Shown here: positions 1-6,366 of the stretch, in pieces
How positions within the stretch are numbered: position 1 is the stretch's first letter
Layout of the letters: each line of letters opens with the position of its first letter
Assembly: GCA_963674745.2 (NCBI GenBank)
Contig: CAXXDV010000003.1
Location: forward strand, 1,856,001-1,920,000
DNA from: Desulfosudaceae bacterium
GTDB taxonomy: Bacteria > Desulfobacterota > Desulfobacteria > Desulfobacterales > Desulfosudaceae
Reading direction: 5' to 3'
DNA: 64,000 nucleotides
Position numbers and translations under genes: made by a program
The notes under the pieces: model-generated
Databases searched by the model: none
What the model was told of the DNA's origin: nothing
Seen by the model: only the letters and a program-made list of their open reading frames with translations

Positions 1-534
1 GAGTCTGCTCATCAGCCGGTCATGGTTGACCCGGTCGAAGAATTTGGACAGGTCCATGTCGACGACATGGGTGTATCCGTCTACCATGTGCCGCTTACCC
101 TGCATAACCGCATCATGCGCGGATCTACCGGGCCTGAACCCATAACTGGATTCAGAAAAGGCGGGCTCCCAGATCTGTTCTACGATCTGGGCGACGGCTT
201 GCTGGATACACCGGTCAAGCACCGTGGGTATTCCCAGTAAACGCACCCCCCCGCCCGGTTTGGGAATCTCTTTCCTTTTCACCGGCAGCGGTTTGTGGGT
301 GCCGTTTTGCAGGTCGTTCTTAATTTCAGGCCAATGCCTGGCCAGGTATTTCCCGAGTTGATCGGTTTTCATCCCATCAACTCCGGGCGCTCCCTGGTTG
401 GCACAAACCTGTTTCCAGGCCCGGATAATGTTACTGCGGTCAAGAATCATCTCCATTAACCGGTCACTTTCTCCCAGACGTTCGGCAATCTGTGACGCTG
501 CAAATATTTCCATCTGCTGTGGCTTTGTATTCAC
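1..534 (-). CDS. ltrA: Group II intron reverse transcriptase/maturase, N-terminal part (truncated by window; absent from ORF track)
   Basis: Hand translation from GTG at 534 (AGGAGG upstream) is open to position 1. It contains NQGAPGVDG, EIPKPGGGVRLLGIPTVLDRCIQQA, FSESSYGFRPGRSAHDA and VVDMDLSKFFDRVNHDRLM, the group II RT0-RT3 motifs. Confidence 0.95.
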   Translation of the reverse strand, partial: MNTKPQQMEIFAASQIAERLGESDRLMEMILDRSNIIRAWKQVCANQGAPGVDGMKTDQLGKYLARHWPEIKNDLQNGTHKPLPVKRKEIPKPGGGVRLLGIPTVLDRCIQQAVAQIVEQIWEPAFSESSYGFRPGRSAHDAVMQGKRHMVDGYTHVVDMDLSKFFDRVNHDRLMSRL

Positions 535-1065
535 AAGTACACACCTCCTAATCGTCACTATCATTTACCCGTCCCATTCGGTCCGGGCACCGTTCCGGCC
601 TTCACCGGGGTGAGTCCTCCGGGTATACTTCTCCCGCTTAAGGGAGGCCCGGCTCGTATCCTCCAGCTACTATGCCATCTGCTGACTTCTCCCATGCGGT
701 CAGGGCCGGTTACCCGACCCTCAGCCGTTTTCCGGCACATGGGAGATCTCCCGGGGTAAACACATGTCTTTCGATACGTGAATGCCGAGTTTACGGACAC
801 GCCTTAAGATGGATAGAGGACTTTATCTTGTTGTGCAGACTCGTCCCGGCGTGCGCGCCTTATACTCGATTCCTGTGCGTCATCCCGTACCTTCGCGGTG
901 CCCCGCCGCAGCAGGGCGGCTTCCTTCCGAAGCACCGTCACCGGCACCCCGTTGCACTACCGCTACACCCTTCGCCTCCATCAGGCTGGGTCTAAGACTT
1001 GCCAAATACGTCAATATCTTATATGTTTGGCTCACTTTTAAGAACATGTGCCGTGCCCGGCACAC
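1..1065 (-). mobile_element. Group II intron (class IIC, attC-targeting type), 5' part; continues beyond the left window edge
   Basis: The minus strand begins GTGTGCCGGGCACGG at 1065 (GUGYG 5' consensus), directly after the exon sequence TTGT (1069-1066). About 530 nt of GC-rich non-coding sequence follows, then an RT ORF. Confidence 0.9.
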
Positions 1066-1190
1066 ACAATCAATCAAGCGCAAAGGACAGCAAGGGCACT
1101 CGGGTTTTGAACATTTGGGGGGGGTGAACAACCGTAACCATAAACCAAGTCAGTGGAAGCCCTGGCTGCCATTGGCTTCAGACGTTATCG
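1066..1190 (+). repeat. attC-like recombination site 1, interrupted at its 5' AAC by the intron
   Basis: Colinear with 1793-1917 (first 46 nt identical, same 121-nt distance to GTT). Imperfect inverted repeat CAGCAAGGGC...GCCCTGGCTG; ends GTTATCG. Confidence 0.8.
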
Positions 1191-1211
1191 CTCTCATACA
1201 GAAAAGGACTT

Positions 1212-1793
1212 ATGCATAAGTACCTGACATCAAATGCAACTATAGACTGGGAAACCCCTAAAGTCATAGCTAAAGCAAATGAACTTGCTCAAGGCATTGA
1301 TAGTTCTGTGGAAATTGCAAAAAAATGTTTTGTATTTGTACGTGATGAAATAAAACATAGTAACGATCACCAATTAAATCCTGTTACATGCAAAGCTTCA
1401 GATGTGCTTGAACACAAAACAGGATTTTGCTATGCCAAAAGCCATCTATTAGCAGCTTTGCTCAGGGCAAATAAAATTCCGGCAGGGCTTTGTTATCAGC
1501 GGCTTACCATCGAAAATGATAAGCCACCATTCTGTTTGCATGGCCTTAATGCTGTATATCTGCCAGATATTGGGTGGTATCGCATTGATGCAAGAGGGAA
1601 TAAAGAAGATGTTTCCGCAGAATTTAGTCCTCCTGTAGAAAGACTTGCTTTCAAAATCGTCCATGAAGGTGAGGCAGATTTTCAAGAAATATGGTCAGAA
1701 CCATTACCTGAAATAAAGGAAGTATTGGAATCATCAAGCTCATATCAGGAAGTGGCTGACAATTTACCTGATATTGAAATAATTAAGAGCTAA
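1212..1793 (+). CDS. Transglutaminase-like family protein (gene cassette)
   Basis: GFCYAKSHLLAALLRA...LHGLNAVYL...WYRIDARG gives the Cys-His-Asp triad. AT-rich. The stop TAA lies inside the AGCTAAC inverse core of the next attC. Confidence 0.85.
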   Translation: MHKYLTSNATIDWETPKVIAKANELAQGIDSSVEIAKKCFVFVRDEIKHSNDHQLNPVTCKASDVLEHKTGFCYAKSHLLAALLRANKIPAGLCYQRLTIENDKPPFCLHGLNAVYLPDIGWYRIDARGNKEDVSAEFSPPVERLAFKIVHEGEADFQEIWSEPLPEIKEVLESSSSYQEVADNLPDIEIIKS

Positions 1794-1917
1794 CAATCAA
1801 TCAAGCGCAAAGGACAGCAAGGGCACTCGGGTTTTGAAATATCGGGGGATTTGAACAACCGAAAACTTTAACCAGGTCAGTGGAAGCCCTGGCTCCCATT
1901 GGCGGCCGCCGTTAAGC
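1788..1917 (+). repeat. attC-like recombination site 2 (130 bp, intact)
   Basis: Starts AGCTAAC overlapping the upstream stop codon and ends GTTAAGC. Internal imperfect inverted repeat; near copy of 1066-1190. Confidence 0.8.
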
Positions 1918-1937
1918 AAAATAATGAAATATAAAAT

Positions 1938-2744
1938 ATGAAGTATAAAATGCCCCTTACTTTTTGTATTATTTTCACCATGGCCATATCGGCGATTTCT
2001 CAAGACGATCACGTCTTTGAAGACATTATCCGCGGTGCTTTTGCTGGACGTGAAGGGACTTTTGTTATCATCGACTGCTCAACTAGCGAAATTCATGATT
2101 TCTATCCGAATACATCCTCAAAAAGAATTGCACCCTGCTCTACATTTAAAATATGGAATACCTTGATTGGACTTGAGAGCGGATTAATTTCCTCATCGGA
2201 TGAATCTTTCTATAAGTGGGATGGCATCGAGCGATCAATTCTGGCATGGAACAAGGACTTGACGTTGCAGGAAGCCTTTCAGGCTTCGTGCGTACCAGCC
2301 TTCCAGTCTCTCGCTCGAAAAATTGGCCCTAAGAAAATGCACTCATGGATTGACAAGATTGGTTATGGAAACAAAGATACATCGGCAGGAATAGATGTTT
2401 TCTGGCTTCCTGCCAGCGGCAGAAGAACCATTTTAATTTCGCCGATGGAGCAAGCGCAACTGATTTACAAACTTATTTCAGGCAATATGCCTTTTTCGGA
2501 TAAATCTATAGCCGCTGTCAAGGACATCATGAAAGTTCGAGAAACCGACCTTGGGACTCTTTATGGCAAAACCGGCACAGCTACAAATGAAACCGGAACT
2601 TATGTCTTAGGATGGTACGTTGGGTTTGTGGAAAGTAAAGGAAAGACATATGCCTTTGCTTGCACAGCAACGGGTGATAACGTTATGGGCAAAGATTCAC
2701 GTGTAATAGTTGAAAGAATTTTGATGAAACAAGGGATATTGTAA
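1938..2744 (+). CDS. Class D (OXA-like) serine beta-lactamase family protein
   Basis: Signal peptide plus PCSTFK (SxxK), SCV (SxV), YGN, FWL and KTG motifs in class D order. Confidence 0.9.
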   Translation: MKYKMPLTFCIIFTMAISAISQDDHVFEDIIRGAFAGREGTFVIIDCSTSEIHDFYPNTSSKRIAPCSTFKIWNTLIGLESGLISSSDESFYKWDGIERSILAWNKDLTLQEAFQASCVPAFQSLARKIGPKKMHSWIDKIGYGNKDTSAGIDVFWLPASGRRTILISPMEQAQLIYKLISGNMPFSDKSIAAVKDIMKVRETDLGTLYGKTGTATNETGTYVLGWYVGFVESKGKTYAFACTATGDNVMGKDSRVIVERILMKQGIL

Positions 2745-2759
2745 AAAAATAATCGCGCT

Positions 2760-3767
2760 TCATTTGAGCGCGTATGTGATCACCGGCTCTTCGGTCTTCC
2801 GGTAAATGCGGCCTTTGTTCTCCAGGTAGCGTAAATGGGAAATGGCCTCTCCGGTGGCAAACCATTTCTGGGCCGGTGGGAATTTCTCCCAGTTCTCGGC
2901 CTCAATATCCCAGGTCATGTACGAAGCGGTTTGAAAGGCATCCAGCGGCGCGTGATGCGCCAGGATGTCCATGACTTCTTCCAGGCGGTGGGCGTGATGG
3001 GATTTAAGTTCATCGATCCGCTCCCGGCAGTTGTCAAACAGCCGGCGATGTCCCGGCAGGACGTGTTTCACCTCCAGGGCCCGCACTTTGTCCAGGCTGG
3101 CCAGGTAATTGGCCAGAGGGTCATCATCCTCGGACCAGCACTGAATGTTGGGCGTAATGTCGATCAGAATATGATCGCCGGCAATCAGGATCTGGTGTTG
3201 CGGTTCATACAGGCACATATGCCCCCTGGTGTGGCCCGGCGTAAGGACACTGGTGAATCGGTACGGGCCTGCTTTCATCTGATGACCGTCGTTTAATATC
3301 TTCAAGGGCGGGCGCCAGTCCGTGCCGAACTTCCGGCCGGGATGCTTTTTAAGAGAAGCCCGCAAAGCCTCTTCGGCCAGGCCGTTTTTAACAGCGTATT
3401 GGATCATGGGCTCAAAGCCCTGCCAGTTTTCGATAATCTCAGCATCCGGACGATTGAAGTACACTTGTGTATTATCACCGGCCATTCGGGTCACCAAACC
3501 GAAATGATCGGCATGCATGTGGGTGATAAAAAGATCGGCCTGCTCCATATCCAGGCCGATTTCCGCCAGTCCGTTCTGCATGGCCTCAAAGCAGATATCA
3601 TGGTTCAGGCCGGTGTCAACGATCAGGGCCCGGGGTTCGGATCGAACAACATAACTGTTCAGGTATTTCAGCGGTGTATCGGGCAGCGGGATCTTGATCC
3701 GGAACAGGTCGGGAATAATTTCTTCAACCATGAACGACGCTCCTTGCATAAATGATTCTGCTATCAT
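2760..3767 (-). CDS. MBL-fold metallo-hydrolase
   Basis: THMHADHFG, TPGHTRGH, AGDH and PGH motifs; C-terminal winged-helix-like tail. Confidence 0.9.
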   Translation of the reverse strand: MIAESFMQGASFMVEEIIPDLFRIKIPLPDTPLKYLNSYVVRSEPRALIVDTGLNHDICFEAMQNGLAEIGLDMEQADLFITHMHADHFGLVTRMAGDNTQVYFNRPDAEIIENWQGFEPMIQYAVKNGLAEEALRASLKKHPGRKFGTDWRPPLKILNDGHQMKAGPYRFTSVLTPGHTRGHMCLYEPQHQILIAGDHILIDITPNIQCWSEDDDPLANYLASLDKVRALEVKHVLPGHRRLFDNCRERIDELKSHHAHRLEEVMDILAHHAPLDAFQTASYMTWDIEAENWEKFPPAQKWFATGEAISHLRYLENKGRIYRKTEEPVITYALK

Positions 3768-4510
3768 TCAAGCGACTGCAGGCAGGACAGGTCACAGCTC
3801 TGAAACATGCTGATGTCCATTTCCTCCTCAATATACCGCAAATCTTCGGCCAGCATGCAATCAGCGGTTTCACCGCGGAAACGTTGTTTGTAGGCGGCAA
3901 ACAGGCGGGGTTTTTTGGCACCGAGTTCGACGGCTATTTCAACCGCCCGGTCGATGACCCGGGACGGATCGACCAGCTCGTCGACCATACCGGCCGCAAG
4001 CGCAGACGTACCGTCGAATTTACGGCCGGAGAGGAATGCAAGGTCGGTCACGCGGCTGCCGACCACGTAATTCACCATGGCCAGGCATCCCGAGGGCGGA
4101 ATAATGGCGACATCGATTTCCGGAAAAGTGCAGACCGCTTTCTCGTTTTTCATGACCCGGTAGTCCAGGCACATGGAAAACGCCAGGGCACTGGCCACAA
4201 CATGACCGTTAATGGCAGCGATCACGGGTTTGGGGAAAATAAACGCCCGATGGAAAAAAGTAAACAGTTCCTTGAAGAACTGCTTGATAGCGTCTTCTTC
4301 AAGCCCCATCACGTACTGAATATCCATACCGGCTGAAAAATACTGAACGCCGCTGCCGGCAACCACCACACCGCGAACGGCGTCATCGGCTTCAATATCG
4401 TCAAGAGCCTTGTTAAACTGTTGAATTATGTCGCTGTTAAAGGCATTCTCCGGCGGGTTTTCCATAAACAGTACGGCTATTTCATTTCTGGTTTCAATTC
4501 TGACTGACAT
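3764..4510 (-). CDS. Enoyl-CoA hydratase/isomerase family protein
   Basis: FSAGMD and PKPVIAAINGH crotonase motifs; 4-nt overlap with the MBL gene. Confidence 0.9.
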   Translation of the reverse strand: MSVRIETRNEIAVLFMENPPENAFNSDIIQQFNKALDDIEADDAVRGVVVAGSGVQYFSAGMDIQYVMGLEEDAIKQFFKELFTFFHRAFIFPKPVIAAINGHVVASALAFSMCLDYRVMKNEKAVCTFPEIDVAIIPPSGCLAMVNYVVGSRVTDLAFLSGRKFDGTSALAAGMVDELVDPSRVIDRAVEIAVELGAKKPRLFAAYKQRFRGETADCMLAEDLRYIEEEMDISMFQSCDLSCLQSLE

Positions 4511-4695
4511 GGGGAACCTCCTTTTTGCATGCTGAAATGAAGACTTCTGGACAAAAATAAATTATCATAGAAAAAAACGATCTGCAACGCCAGGTGTCGG
4601 GCGGCACCCGATTTTTTTACACCCTCACCGTAAAAGCCTGATAAATTCATCGAAAACGACAAGCAGGCAGTTGTGTTTGAGGTAAAATATCCTTC

Positions 4696-4725
4696 TTGAC
4701 ACAACTTATCACCCTGATATATATT
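4696..4725 (+). promoter_or_regulatory. Putative sigma70 promoter of the hdr-met operon
   Basis: TTGACA (4696-4701), 18 nt, TATATT (4720-4725). Overlapped by the inverted repeat GTTGTGT...ACACAAC (4670-4705). Confidence 0.55.
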
Positions 4726-4859
4726 TTTAGGAACCGTGCAAACGGCGTTCCATCAATGAAACGGGGGTCTCCAAAGAAAAGCGTGCAGGCTTTGTCATTG
4801 TTTTTTTCTTTTTGAATCCGTTTCTTTTTTTACAGTCACGACAAACCAAGGAGCTAATC

Positions 4860-5468
4860 ATGACGGCACCCGCCATTCAGGTAGCACCGGATGTGGCCAA
4901 TCCCCTGATCGCCGAAGTCATGGAACGTTCCGGACAGAATCTTCTCACCTGCTATCAGTGCCGCCGGTGCGCCGGAGCCTGCGCGGTGGGCGATGAGACA
5001 GGATTCTTTACCCCGGACCGTTTAATTCGCGCCATTCTCATCGGCGACCGGCAAACCGCCTTGAATAACGAACTGATCTGGAAATGCGTCTCCTGCTATA
5101 CCTGCGGGATTCGTTGTCCCAACGGCATTCAAACCGGTCGCATTACCGAAACCCTCAAAAAAATGGCCAAAGAAGCCCATCAGAAATCACCCCACCCCAA
5201 AGTGGTTCATTTCCATGACGCCTTTGTCAAATCCGGTGTTCGCTGGGGCCGGGTGAACGAAACCGAATTTATGGCCGCCTATGAAATAAAAAACACGGCC
5301 GCTGACCTGAGAAAATTCGACTTTCGTGCCGTCACCGAAGAAATTGCCCGGCAGTTGAAACTGGCCATGGCCATGTTACGGTTGGGCCGGATGCATTTCG
5401 GCTTTCTCTCGGCCAAAGGCCGGGGCGAAATCAAACGGCTGAAAAAGGCGAAAACCAAAACACAATAA
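4860..5468 (+). CDS. hdrC: Heterodisulfide reductase subunit C-like (2x[4Fe-4S])
   Basis: CYQCRRCAGAC and CVSCYTCGIRCP. ATG 4860 follows AAGGAG and is preferred over the track start 4812. Confidence 0.9.
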   Translation: MTAPAIQVAPDVANPLIAEVMERSGQNLLTCYQCRRCAGACAVGDETGFFTPDRLIRAILIGDRQTALNNELIWKCVSCYTCGIRCPNGIQTGRITETLKKMAKEAHQKSPHPKVVHFHDAFVKSGVRWGRVNETEFMAAYEIKNTAADLRKFDFRAVTEEIARQLKLAMAMLRLGRMHFGFLSAKGRGEIKRLKKAKTKTQ

Positions 5469-5478
5469 GAGGTCTGCC

Positions 5479-6366
5479 ATGGAATTAGCCTATTACCCGG
5501 GGTGTTCGCTGAAACAATCCTCTGCGCTTTATGATCACCAGACCCGTCTTGTTTTTGATAAGCTCGGCGTGCAGCTCCGGGAACTGGCCGACTGGAACTG
5601 CTGCGGCGCCACATCGGCCGGTAAAACCGACGATTTTCTGTCTATCGCCATGCCCGCCCGCAATCTGGGTATCGCCGCCCAGTCCGGCTTGAATGAAATG
5701 GTCATCCCCTGTTCGGCCTGTTATTCCCGCACCCTGGTGGCCCAGCAATACCTGGAGGCGAACCCGGATTTAAAAGAAGAAATCAATGCCGGTGTGTCCA
5801 AAAAGATTACAACACCGGTCAAGGTGTCATCCATCCTGGAAGTACTGCTTGCCCTTCTGGATTCCGGAACGCTGGCCGAAAAACTGATCTACAAACCTAA
5901 AAGCTTAAAACCGGTCTGTTATTACGGCTGCATGATGACCCGTTTTCCTTTTCCGGTGCCGGTCCCGGACAGTATCGAAAATCCCCGGGGCATGGAAATC
6001 ATTTTAGAAGCCCTGGGCCTGCATCCCATAGACTGGAACTACAAAACCAACTGCTGCGGGGCCTCGGCCGCCGTCACCGATCCGGCCGTGGCCCACACAC
6101 TGATGGCCAAAATCCTGAACGATGCGCTGGCTCGCAGCGCCAACTGCCTGATAACCACCTGCCCTATGTGCCAGATGAACCTGGACGCCTACCAGGAAGA
6201 CATCTGCCGGGAACACAACATCAGCGAACGACTGCCGGTCTTTTTCATTACCGAGGTGGTGGGAATGGCCATGGGTTTGGACATCAAATCGTTGGAGATC
6301 GACAAGCACTTTATCAACGGAACGGAACTCTTCAAGGAGCTGGAGCAATATGAATCAGAGCACTAA
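5479..6366 (+). CDS. hdrB: Heterodisulfide reductase subunit B-like (CCG domains)
   Basis: YYPGCSL, DWNCCG, YYGC, CCGAS and CPMCQMNLD motifs. Confidence 0.95.
   Translation: MELAYYPGCSLKQSSALYDHQTRLVFDKLGVQLRELADWNCCGATSAGKTDDFLSIAMPARNLGIAAQSGLNEMVIPCSACYSRTLVAQQYLEANPDLKEEINAGVSKKITTPVKVSSILEVLLALLDSGTLAEKLIYKPKSLKPVCYYGCMMTRFPFPVPVPDSIENPRGMEIILEALGLHPIDWNYKTNCCGASAAVTDPAVAHTLMAKILNDALARSANCLITTCPMCQMNLDAYQEDICREHNISERLPVFFITEVVGMAMGLDIKSLEIDKHFINGTELFKELEQYESEH

Follow-up and report, generated by a model that had tools for sequence, protein, structure and literature searches.

Positions 1-2744 of a 64,000-nucleotide (nt) stretch of DNA from a Desulfosudaceae bacterium (hereafter the window; C3:1856001-1920000, on one of the three contigs of a 5.55-Mb genome assembly) are very probably the promoter-distal end of a chromosomal integron of the sedentary type whose integrase has been lost. 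The array to which they belong spans C3:1821001-1858744, about 37.7 kb, and contains at least 47 attC sites of a single family of about 125 nt. As their ends show, its cassettes were assembled by IntI-type recombination of folded bottom-strand attC hairpins, with crossover at G|TT. A first-pass annotation of the window, a raw-sequence reading from just two repeats, correctly recognised an integron cassette array and proposed that it was the distal end of either a chromosomal integron or a cluster of attC sites lacking an integrase (CALIN). That proposal has held up well, since the proximal end of the array carries a putative attI site and a stub of about 24 codons from the 5' end of intI, the gene itself being lost. 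Below, positions without a prefix are those of the window, and the prefixes C and L denote contigs and retrieved loci, respectively.

The two colinear repeats on which that annotation rested are borne out at 1066-1187 and 1793-1914, which align without gaps over 122 nt at 86% identity and whose starts are offset by 727 nt. The likeness claimed for the first 46 nt is exact, in that 46 identical columns run from the start (1066-1111 and 1793-1838). The second copy opens as described with AGCTAAC (1788-1794), which overlaps the TAA stop of the open reading frame (ORF) at 1212-1793, and closes with GTTAAGC (1911-1917). Each copy is indeed followed, 21-22 nt downstream, by an AT-rich ORF on the same strand (1212-1793 and 1938-2744); these ORFs have a G+C content of 37-44%, and the flanks 51-59%. 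Three features escaped the earlier reading: a group II intron cuts copy 1, copy 2 is chimeric and mismatched, and an attC is missing from the last cassette.

A large attC family

How common is the repeat? A blastn search returned 141 copies in the genome, and many of the further copies flank single ORFs, as the annotation had anticipated. A profile made from 130 of the 141 copies and run with nhmmer (E up to 0.01) finds 200 family members, 193 of which cover at least 110 of 150 positions; 143 of these are strong copies and 50 represent a more divergent subtype. All but one of the members (199/200) lie in nine clusters, and the large clusters are one-stranded throughout (76/76, 37/37, 23/23, 18/18, 15/15, and 14/14). 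In Rfam scans no family matched the repeats, the intron domains described below being the only matches.

The genome also encodes the enzymes expected to act on such sites. Three places pass the cut-off of TIGR02249 (265 bits), with 428.9, 415.7, and 414.7 bits, and none of 14 control genomes has a match above it. The three intI reading frames are open, without internal stops, and each gene is divergent, with the first repeat of a cluster 0.6-0.9 kb away, which is the canonical integron layout. With three integrases and about 200 attC sites of one family, the genome has an unusually rich integron complement.

The family is present in 14 of the 41 genomes searched, this one included. The annotation had suspected a lineage-specific attC family, and the distribution agrees with this, with 8 carriers among the 12 other members of its taxonomic family that were searched, compared with 5 of 28 genomes from other families of the order (one genome per family), a count in which absence from an incomplete assembly proves little. 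Taxon-specific attC families, including a "Deltaproteobacteria" model, are already described in portions of Ghaly et al. 2021 (PMC8352920), and the attC type found here is like them in being common to related genomes.

Hairpin structure of the repeats

Do the repeats form the hairpins that an integrase would require? Alignment A2 contains the bottom strands of 65 of the 143 strong copies, namely those in loci already retrieved. AAC stands near the 5' end in 64-65 of the 65 and GTT near the 3' end in 61-63. RNAalifold finds a 16-pair stem in this alignment with compensatory changes in 7 pairs; one pair of columns, for example, reads GC in 39 copies, UA in 11, and CG in 8. In a 24-pair model, composed of a 4-bp R box and a 20-bp L stem, 93.8% of cells are paired, versus 85.3% in shuffles (reached by 0 of 500) and 32-46% in slid controls. 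Double-change cells number 104 against 39.3 in shuffles (again, 0 of 500 reach the observed value), a shuffle control that sequence kinship can inflate, and 10 of the 24 pairs show such changes. The slid control, together with the test of cassette ends given below, is stronger evidence than the shuffle control.

The two arms of the stem differ in their unpaired columns. The bottom-strand 3' arm has 4-6 unpaired columns in A2 (118, 119, 122, 123, 125, and 128) versus two in the 5' arm (28 and 31), and column 128 is a lone bulge between paired columns at which the bulged base may be C, A, or G. The surplus of unpaired bases appears to be on the R''-L'' arm. In attC sites, extrahelical bases on the R''-L'' arm mark the strand that is recombined, a possible role for those seen here.

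Between the arms lies a loop of about 68 nt. Mutual information over 142 unique copies shows no pairing inside this central loop; the top paired signals all fall in the known stem, while the other pairs of columns with high mutual information are unpaired and reflect subfamilies. The centre of attC sites is usually variable, unlike the conserved centre seen here.

Cassette ends as a footprint of recombination

A second line of evidence is independent of structure. If crossover occurs at G|TT, each cassette should carry both halves of its own attC, and the 8 nt after GTT can be compared with the 8 nt before the AAC of the same cassette's downstream attC. AAC and GTT are in register at 182 of the 193 sites, giving 156 cassettes. 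Their own ends are complementary at 5.80 of 8 positions (n = 156), compared with 3.15 of 8 when the R'' flank of the attC just upstream is used instead and 3.02 of 8 for random flanks (Wilcoxon p = 1e-21). Such own-end pairing is the footprint that crossover at G|TT leaves. The near-complementarity that the annotation had pointed out between the ends of the first window cassette, GTTA-TC-GCTCT (1184-1194) and AGAGCTAAC (1786-1794), is present save for a 2-nt bulge and is one instance of this rule.

An array that has lost its integrase

The search to the left of the window that the annotation proposed uncovered a 47-site one-strand array, an attI relic, and an intI stub. Covariance model R1, built from the family copies of this genome, finds 47 sites in C3:1810001-1860000, all of them on the strand expected for plus-strand cassettes, and two weak opposite-strand matches that overlap strong sites. 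Most of the 47 look intact, with scores of 120-151 bits. Neighbouring sites are separated by 46 intervals, mostly of 246-600 nt with a G+C fraction of 0.29-0.42; 41 of these are shorter than 1.5 kb, and in 36 of the 41 the longest ORF runs in the direction of the cassettes, the five exceptions being copies of one cassette of about 259 nt. Six other clusters, among them all three that are linked to intI, contain cassettes of this array at 90-99.6% identity, and some cassettes within the array are 100% identical. The window's own two cassettes have no second copy in the genome at a threshold of 90% identity over 250 nt or more.

The fate of the integrase gene can be read from the other end of the array. 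Over 326 nt, the left flank matches the intI-proximal region of the intact C1 integron with 82.5% identity, and a large orphan array, also on C1, has the same attI/intI relic. When the three are aligned, the homology takes in the intI start codon and about 24 codons and stops exactly at AACATTG|TT, beyond which the three arrays have different first cassettes. On the strength of this homology, the head of the array can be taken to be an attI site. Having kept attI and lost intI, the array is a former complete integron and, by definition, a CALIN. The annotation's statement that there is no intI in the window extends to the whole array: apart from the retained 5' codons at the proximal end, a tblastn search with one IntI (E up to 10) found none in or beside it. 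The nearest intI to exceed the TIGR02249 cut-off lies on the same contig at a distance of about 490 kb.

Other orphan clusters seem to have had a similar history. Further relics, either of attI regions or of the 5' end of intI, lie beside orphan attC clusters at C1:1531745-1532111, C1:2265468-2265669, C3:367181-367546, and C1:958607-958769, and the attI retained by the 76-site array on C1 is the same as that of the array of the window. At least two arrays of this genome visibly derive from complete integrons in which attI was kept and intI lost, and, judging from these sequences, several of its CALINs are decayed integrons.

The host genes that flank the array are xth on the left and a metallo-beta-lactamase (MBL)-fold hydrolase gene on the right. 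In a relative with a complete genome (G007), the MBL gene, an acyl-CoA ligase gene, and xth are adjacent, so that MBL and xth are one gene apart. The orthologue of this ligase in the present genome is 85% identical and lies about 714 kb away, at C3:1105911-1107569, flanked by GC-rich palindromic repeat units of the GGGGCAGGCCCCCGTGCCTGCCC type; no integron remnant was found beside it. The displaced ligase gene is probably the sign of a large rearrangement around the array. In a genome of the same genus (G002), no array lies beside xth, and the MBL gene was not found with the query used.

Points against an integron and a rival reading of the repeat

Besides the inflation of the shuffle control by kinship, several observations weigh against reading the window as the end of an integron. 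(i) The bottom-strand fold of copy 2 reaches only -11.3 kcal/mol (z = +1.06), with 180 of 200 shuffles as stable, and its top-strand fold does no better (z = +0.91). (ii) The centre of about 68 nt (columns 41-108 of A2; 1822-1888 in copy 2) is conserved in sequence, as in GTTCAAAACCCGAGTGCCC, yet unpaired. (iii) Four outer L positions are unpaired in copy 2, where the four outer L-stem pairs are non-standard, as the annotation had cautioned in calling its outer-stem pairing imperfect. (iv) The terminal cassette has no attC, R1 scoring at most 7.7 bits elsewhere in 1-6000 with its filters off. (v) No intI lies near C3:1.81-1.87 Mb, where none of the 31 matches in the genome falls. (vi) Both window copies match R1, with 118 and 112 bits, which accords with the structure-aware check that the annotation proposed, but this model was trained on copies from the same genome and its matches here are not independent. 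(vii) The cassettes shared among clusters could also come from homologous recombination or segmental duplication.

Because copy 2 folds no better than its shuffles, the window alone cannot prove that its repeats are attC sites. The annotation's bottom-strand hairpin stands for the family, in which an attC-like stem covaries, and is more weakly supported for the window copies taken singly. Folding energy alone did not settle the question; covariation did. The annotation had also named three outcomes that would make its repeats a simple local duplication, and the opposite of each was found: a model match, further copies, and a hairpin.

Could the repeat be something other than an attC? An interspersed repeat unrelated to integrons, such as a repetitive extragenic palindrome or bacterial interspersed mosaic element, a miniature inverted-repeat transposable element, a terminator, or a riboregulator upstream of small genes, might be conserved over its unpaired central 68 nt if that segment had a sequence-specific role, and the position of the copies about 20 nt upstream of start codons and the lack of an Rfam match are in keeping with this. 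Such an element would not be expected to form strict one-strand arrays with one ORF per unit and AAC...GTT core boxes, to adjoin three integron integrases and an attI whose homology stops at G|TT, or to leave cassette ends that pair with their own attC. At least four family sites, moreover, carry attC-targeting (TTGT|T) introns antisense to the cassettes. This alternative is therefore very improbable.

The distal cassettes and the right boundary

Turning to the integron end itself, the first complete cassette of the window occupies 1185-1911 on the plus strand (727 nt; G+C fraction 0.37-0.38) and consists of the ORF at 1212-1793 and its own attC. The ORF encodes a 193-amino-acid transglutaminase-like protein (Transglut_core, PF01841, E 4.7e-14) and has no NCBIfam match. 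Its attC, copy 2 (1788-1917, plus strand), is complete, comprising R'' (AGCTAAC), a conserved stem, the loop of about 68 nt, and R' (GTTAAGC), and is matched by R1 at 1778-1925(-) with 118.1 bits.

The defects of copy 2 are explained by the mixed origin of its arms. In alignment A2, the L'/R' arm falls in the GGCGGCCGCC subtype and the R''/L'' arm in the CTTGATTG subtype, and this breaks the four outer L pairs. A 4-nt duplication in the R''/L'' arm puts the R box out of register as well. The duplication variant, CAATCAATCAAGC, has two matches in the genome, both of them the window copies, and this private arm accounts for the run of 46 shared nt, which suggests local conversion or a homologous exchange and not the action of IntI.

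A private arm raises the question of whether the repeats are a simple local tandem duplication of a segment of about 130 nt that has no recombination function. Over their first 46 nt, neither window copy has a closer relative than the other, and they alone have the 4-nt duplication, so that this arm did undergo local copying or gene conversion to some extent. Their 3' halves nevertheless differ in subtype, and a local duplication accounts neither for 200 members in oriented arrays across the genome, with covarying stems and three arrays linked to intI, nor for own-end complementarity over 156 cassettes. On the grounds of family size, covariation, and own-end pairing, this explanation was rejected, and the chance that it is correct is negligible.

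In the integron reading, the terminal cassette occupies 1912-2744 on the plus strand and consists of an ORF of 268 amino acids (1938-2744; here ORF2) that starts 21 nt past the attC crossover. Comparison of synteny with relatives did not reveal the event by which the terminal attC was lost. Directly past the ORF2 stop begins a terminator-like site on the minus strand (2745-2772), made up of a hairpin at 2754-2772 and a T-run, ATTATTTTTT. It belongs to the converging host gene for an MBL-fold hydrolase (2760-3767(-); Lactamase_B match in Pfam) and forms the right boundary of the array, with 15 nt between the array's end and that gene's stop; the G+C fraction climbs here to 0.51-0.59. The G007 orthologue of that gene, one gene from xth, is 80% identical.

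Are the last units of the array mobile or expressed? With copy 1 split, the stem of copy 2 broken, and the last cassette lacking an attC, the three last units are probably fixed and poorly mobile. Lying about 37 kb from attI, they are also probably silent unless a local promoter, for example from the intron, serves them. A promoter scan found ten consensus-like sites against an expected 4.6 +/- 2.5, among them a site at 999-1027 that faces out of the intron and another at 1756-1783, ahead of copy 2, but these matches are too weak to claim expression of the terminal cassettes.

A group II intron in copy 1

The first 1,065 nt of the window are the 5' part of a minus-strand group II intron of 1,932 nt, which interrupts the bottom strand of attC copy 1 and is antisense to the cassettes. 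The whole element (C3:1855134-1857065, minus strand) reaches 866 nt past the left edge of the window. Rfam matches to RF02001 at 760-947(-) (118.7 bits) and RF01998 at 597-723(-) (47.7 bits) identify its domains. Its reverse transcriptase (RT)/maturase ORF begins at 564 and leaves the window, matches RVT_1 and TIGR04416 (360.7 bits), and contains one in-frame TAA, at codon 311 of 445.

The insertion can be reconstructed precisely. The intron begins with GTGTG at 1065 and ends with ...CCCGAT|T at L041:5134; the 5' exon ends ...GATTGATTGT and the 3' exon begins TATGC, so that the rejoined exons read ...GCATA|ACAATC..., a TTGT|T insertion in the R'' box of the bottom strand. The junction is TTGT|GTGTG in copy 1, where the intact copy 2 has TTGT|TAGC. 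Copy 1 (1066-1190, plus strand; R1 111.6 bits at 1051-1198(-)) retains R' (GTTATCG, 1184-1190) and the crossover G|TT (1184/1185) and is without the left half of R'', which lies 1.93 kb upstream across the intron; AAC itself is split. Copy 1 belongs to the YefM/YoeB toxin-antitoxin (TA) cassette to the left of the window, and the 3' exon TATGCAAAAAATTA follows the yoeB stop.

Group IIC-attC introns are described, in portions of PMC7923331 and PMC3001079, as inserting in the attC bottom strand at R'' with the consensus TTGT/T and antisense to the cassettes. The intron of copy 1 appears to behave in the same way, its target, strand, and orientation all agreeing. The best plasmid-borne relatives of its RT are 56-61% identical and bear no class label, and among them nothing decisive on RT class was found.

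The same intron family occurs elsewhere in this genome as six ORF-less copies of about 715 nt that are about 99% alike and whose first 513 nt are 93% identical to the sole ORF-bearing copy. They lie at L041:2228-2945(-), L041:3774-4488(-), L040:18264-18985(-), C1:1482606-1483320, C1:1484843-1485559, and C1:2101343-2102057. Four of the six stand at GGT|T in long-family attCs, a fifth in a short (about 60-nt) attC-like hairpin, and the sixth behind another hairpin; they have the look of non-autonomous derivatives. At L041:4489-4550, the array of the window has a short attC-like hairpin of a different type, TAAC...GGCATCAGCAGCCGC...GCGGTCTGCTGGATGCC...GGT|T, which carries an ORF-less intron; arrays therefore mix in attC types that the family model does not count.

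One speculation is that these elements form a two-tier retroelement, in which the 715-nt ORF-less introns parasitise hairpins, mostly attC bottom strands, and are mobilised in trans by their single, stop-bearing, ORF-bearing relative, while homologous recombination between introns or attC cores, not IntI, made the mismatched attC and the attC-less end cassette. We regard this scheme as improbable. Were it true, it would be a natural case of the intron-driven cassette fusion or genesis that has been proposed for group IIC-attC introns.

A class D beta-lactamase-like protein in the terminal cassette

The product of ORF2 has a signal-peptide-like N terminus and matches PF00905 at 121 bits. Class D beta-lactamases are recognised by the active-site motifs S-x-x-K, S-x-V, Y-G-N, and K-T-G, and ORF2 contains STFK, SCV, YGN, and KTG. 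Its best match in the PDB is the class D enzyme 5ctm (E 8.9e-46), with which STFK, YGN, and KTG align. Against NF012161 it scores 216.1 bits, under the cut-off of 250, and the model of the BlaR1 sensor gives 193.6. Among 5.8 billion clustered proteins its nearest relatives are at most 66% identical, and those with a named source come from environmental assemblies of Desulfobacteraceae, Thermodesulfobacteriota, Lentisphaerota, and similar groups. ORF2 is best called a divergent class D (OXA-type) beta-lactamase-like protein of putative activity.

Its placement recalls the blaOXA cassettes of mobile class 1 integrons (blaOXA-10, for example, in the part of PMC3001079 concerned), since a class D fold stands in cassette position. 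Unlike these, ORF2 is chromosomal, has no attC of its own, falls below the class D cut-off, and belongs to a genome of the environmental anaerobe type. It is a further resistance-type fold in the chromosomal integron of a non-clinical anaerobe and as such may bear on the origin of mobile resistance cassettes.

Relation to known systems and present state of the array

The kind of element described here is known. What is new is the demonstration by covariation and own ends, the origin from an attI preceded by a deleted intI (ΔintI-attI), the intron-split and chimeric attCs, and the attC-less, beta-lactamase-like end. Like the VCR/VXR arrays of Vibrio superintegrons, the array has dozens of AT-rich, co-oriented, mostly single-ORF cassettes, its attCs of about 125 nt are 70-87% alike, and TA cassettes lie inside it. 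Unlike fully paired VCR-type sites, its attCs pair over the outer 24 bp or so and leave a centre of about 68 nt unpaired, and in place of one superintegron with intI there are at least seven clusters and three integrases, with this array lacking intI.

CALINs are defined by at least two attC sites with no intI nearby (in portions of PMC7923331; they also appear in part of PMC4889954, from 2016), and with 47 attC sites and no intI nearby the array is like them. It is unlike the usual CALIN in that its origin can be read, from an attI and an intI 5' stub homologous to an intact integron in the same genome. The intron of copy 1, for its part, is like S.ma.I2 and related group IIC-attC introns, as far as the cited portions describe them, in its antisense bottom-strand insertion at TTGT|T of R'', which parts the gene from its attC, and in that its family is also found behind hairpins outside the long attC family. 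It is unlike them in that the sole ORF-bearing copy has an in-frame stop and is accompanied by six ORF-less 715-nt derivatives.

Is the array still active? The three IntI paralogues, whose own arrays have the same attC family and shared cassettes, may still be able to excise and reinsert its cassettes in trans. The contrasting possibility is that the whole array is a dead fossil, unserviced and kept by TA cassettes and drift. Deletion of intI down to about 24 codons would fit such a state, as would the crowding of the distal 15 kb or so with insertions, namely one intron family in three copies, an intron of a second type, and two elements of the insertion sequence (IS) family IS110, the damage to the window attCs, the absence of an attC from the last cassette, and the YefM/YoeB and PIN-type TA cassettes just upstream. 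Most of the 47 attCs nevertheless score 120-151 bits, near-identical cassettes (up to 99.6%, and 100% within the array) are common to other arrays, including those linked to intI, and all three intI frames are open, all of which makes a dead fossil rather unlikely. The genome offers a natural data set on how CALINs arise, on whether orphan arrays are serviced in trans, and on how attC-targeting introns and IS elements erode array ends.

The TA cassettes just mentioned lie at L041:3110-3762 and L041:4620-5122, immediately upstream of the window cassettes; the former encodes a PIN-domain protein plus its YlcI/YnfO-like partner, the latter YefM and YoeB. They fit the idea that TA cassettes stabilise large arrays.

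Other elements in the arrays

A second group II intron, from about L040:19484 to about L041:1740 on the plus strand, is sense to the cassettes and directly follows an attC. It matches RF02012 at L040:19533-19674 and RF00029 at L041:1654-1730, and its RT is split into ORFs of 274 and 277 amino acids.

Elements encoding IS110-family (DEDD) transposases stand in the cassette arrays at L040:15974-17095(-), L040:13534-14361(-), and C3:2334929-2336674, two of them in the array of the window and one in an intI-linked array on C3; they presumably resemble the attC-targeting IS1111 group. A repeated element (L036:1447-3403), with four copies that have a tyrosine-recombinase match, encodes a tyrosine recombinase-like protein of 251 amino acids and an IS91-type Y2/zinc-finger transposase. 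It adjoins three attCs right after the GTT of the bottom-strand R'' (...GGTT|GAACGAAGCC...), with junctions at L028:1479-1627, L037:2132-2281, and L038:1224-1373.

The commonest cassette in the genome, of about 276 nt, has some 30 copies in six clusters at 86-96% identity. It has no co-oriented ORF, its longest ORF (77-78 amino acids) being on the opposite strand, and is possibly non-coding. Examples from the array are found at C3:1827696-1827971, 1829139-1829414, 1831711-1831986, 1835733-1836007, and 1841056-1841329, and at C3:29520-29795 the same cassette stands as the first cassette of an integron.

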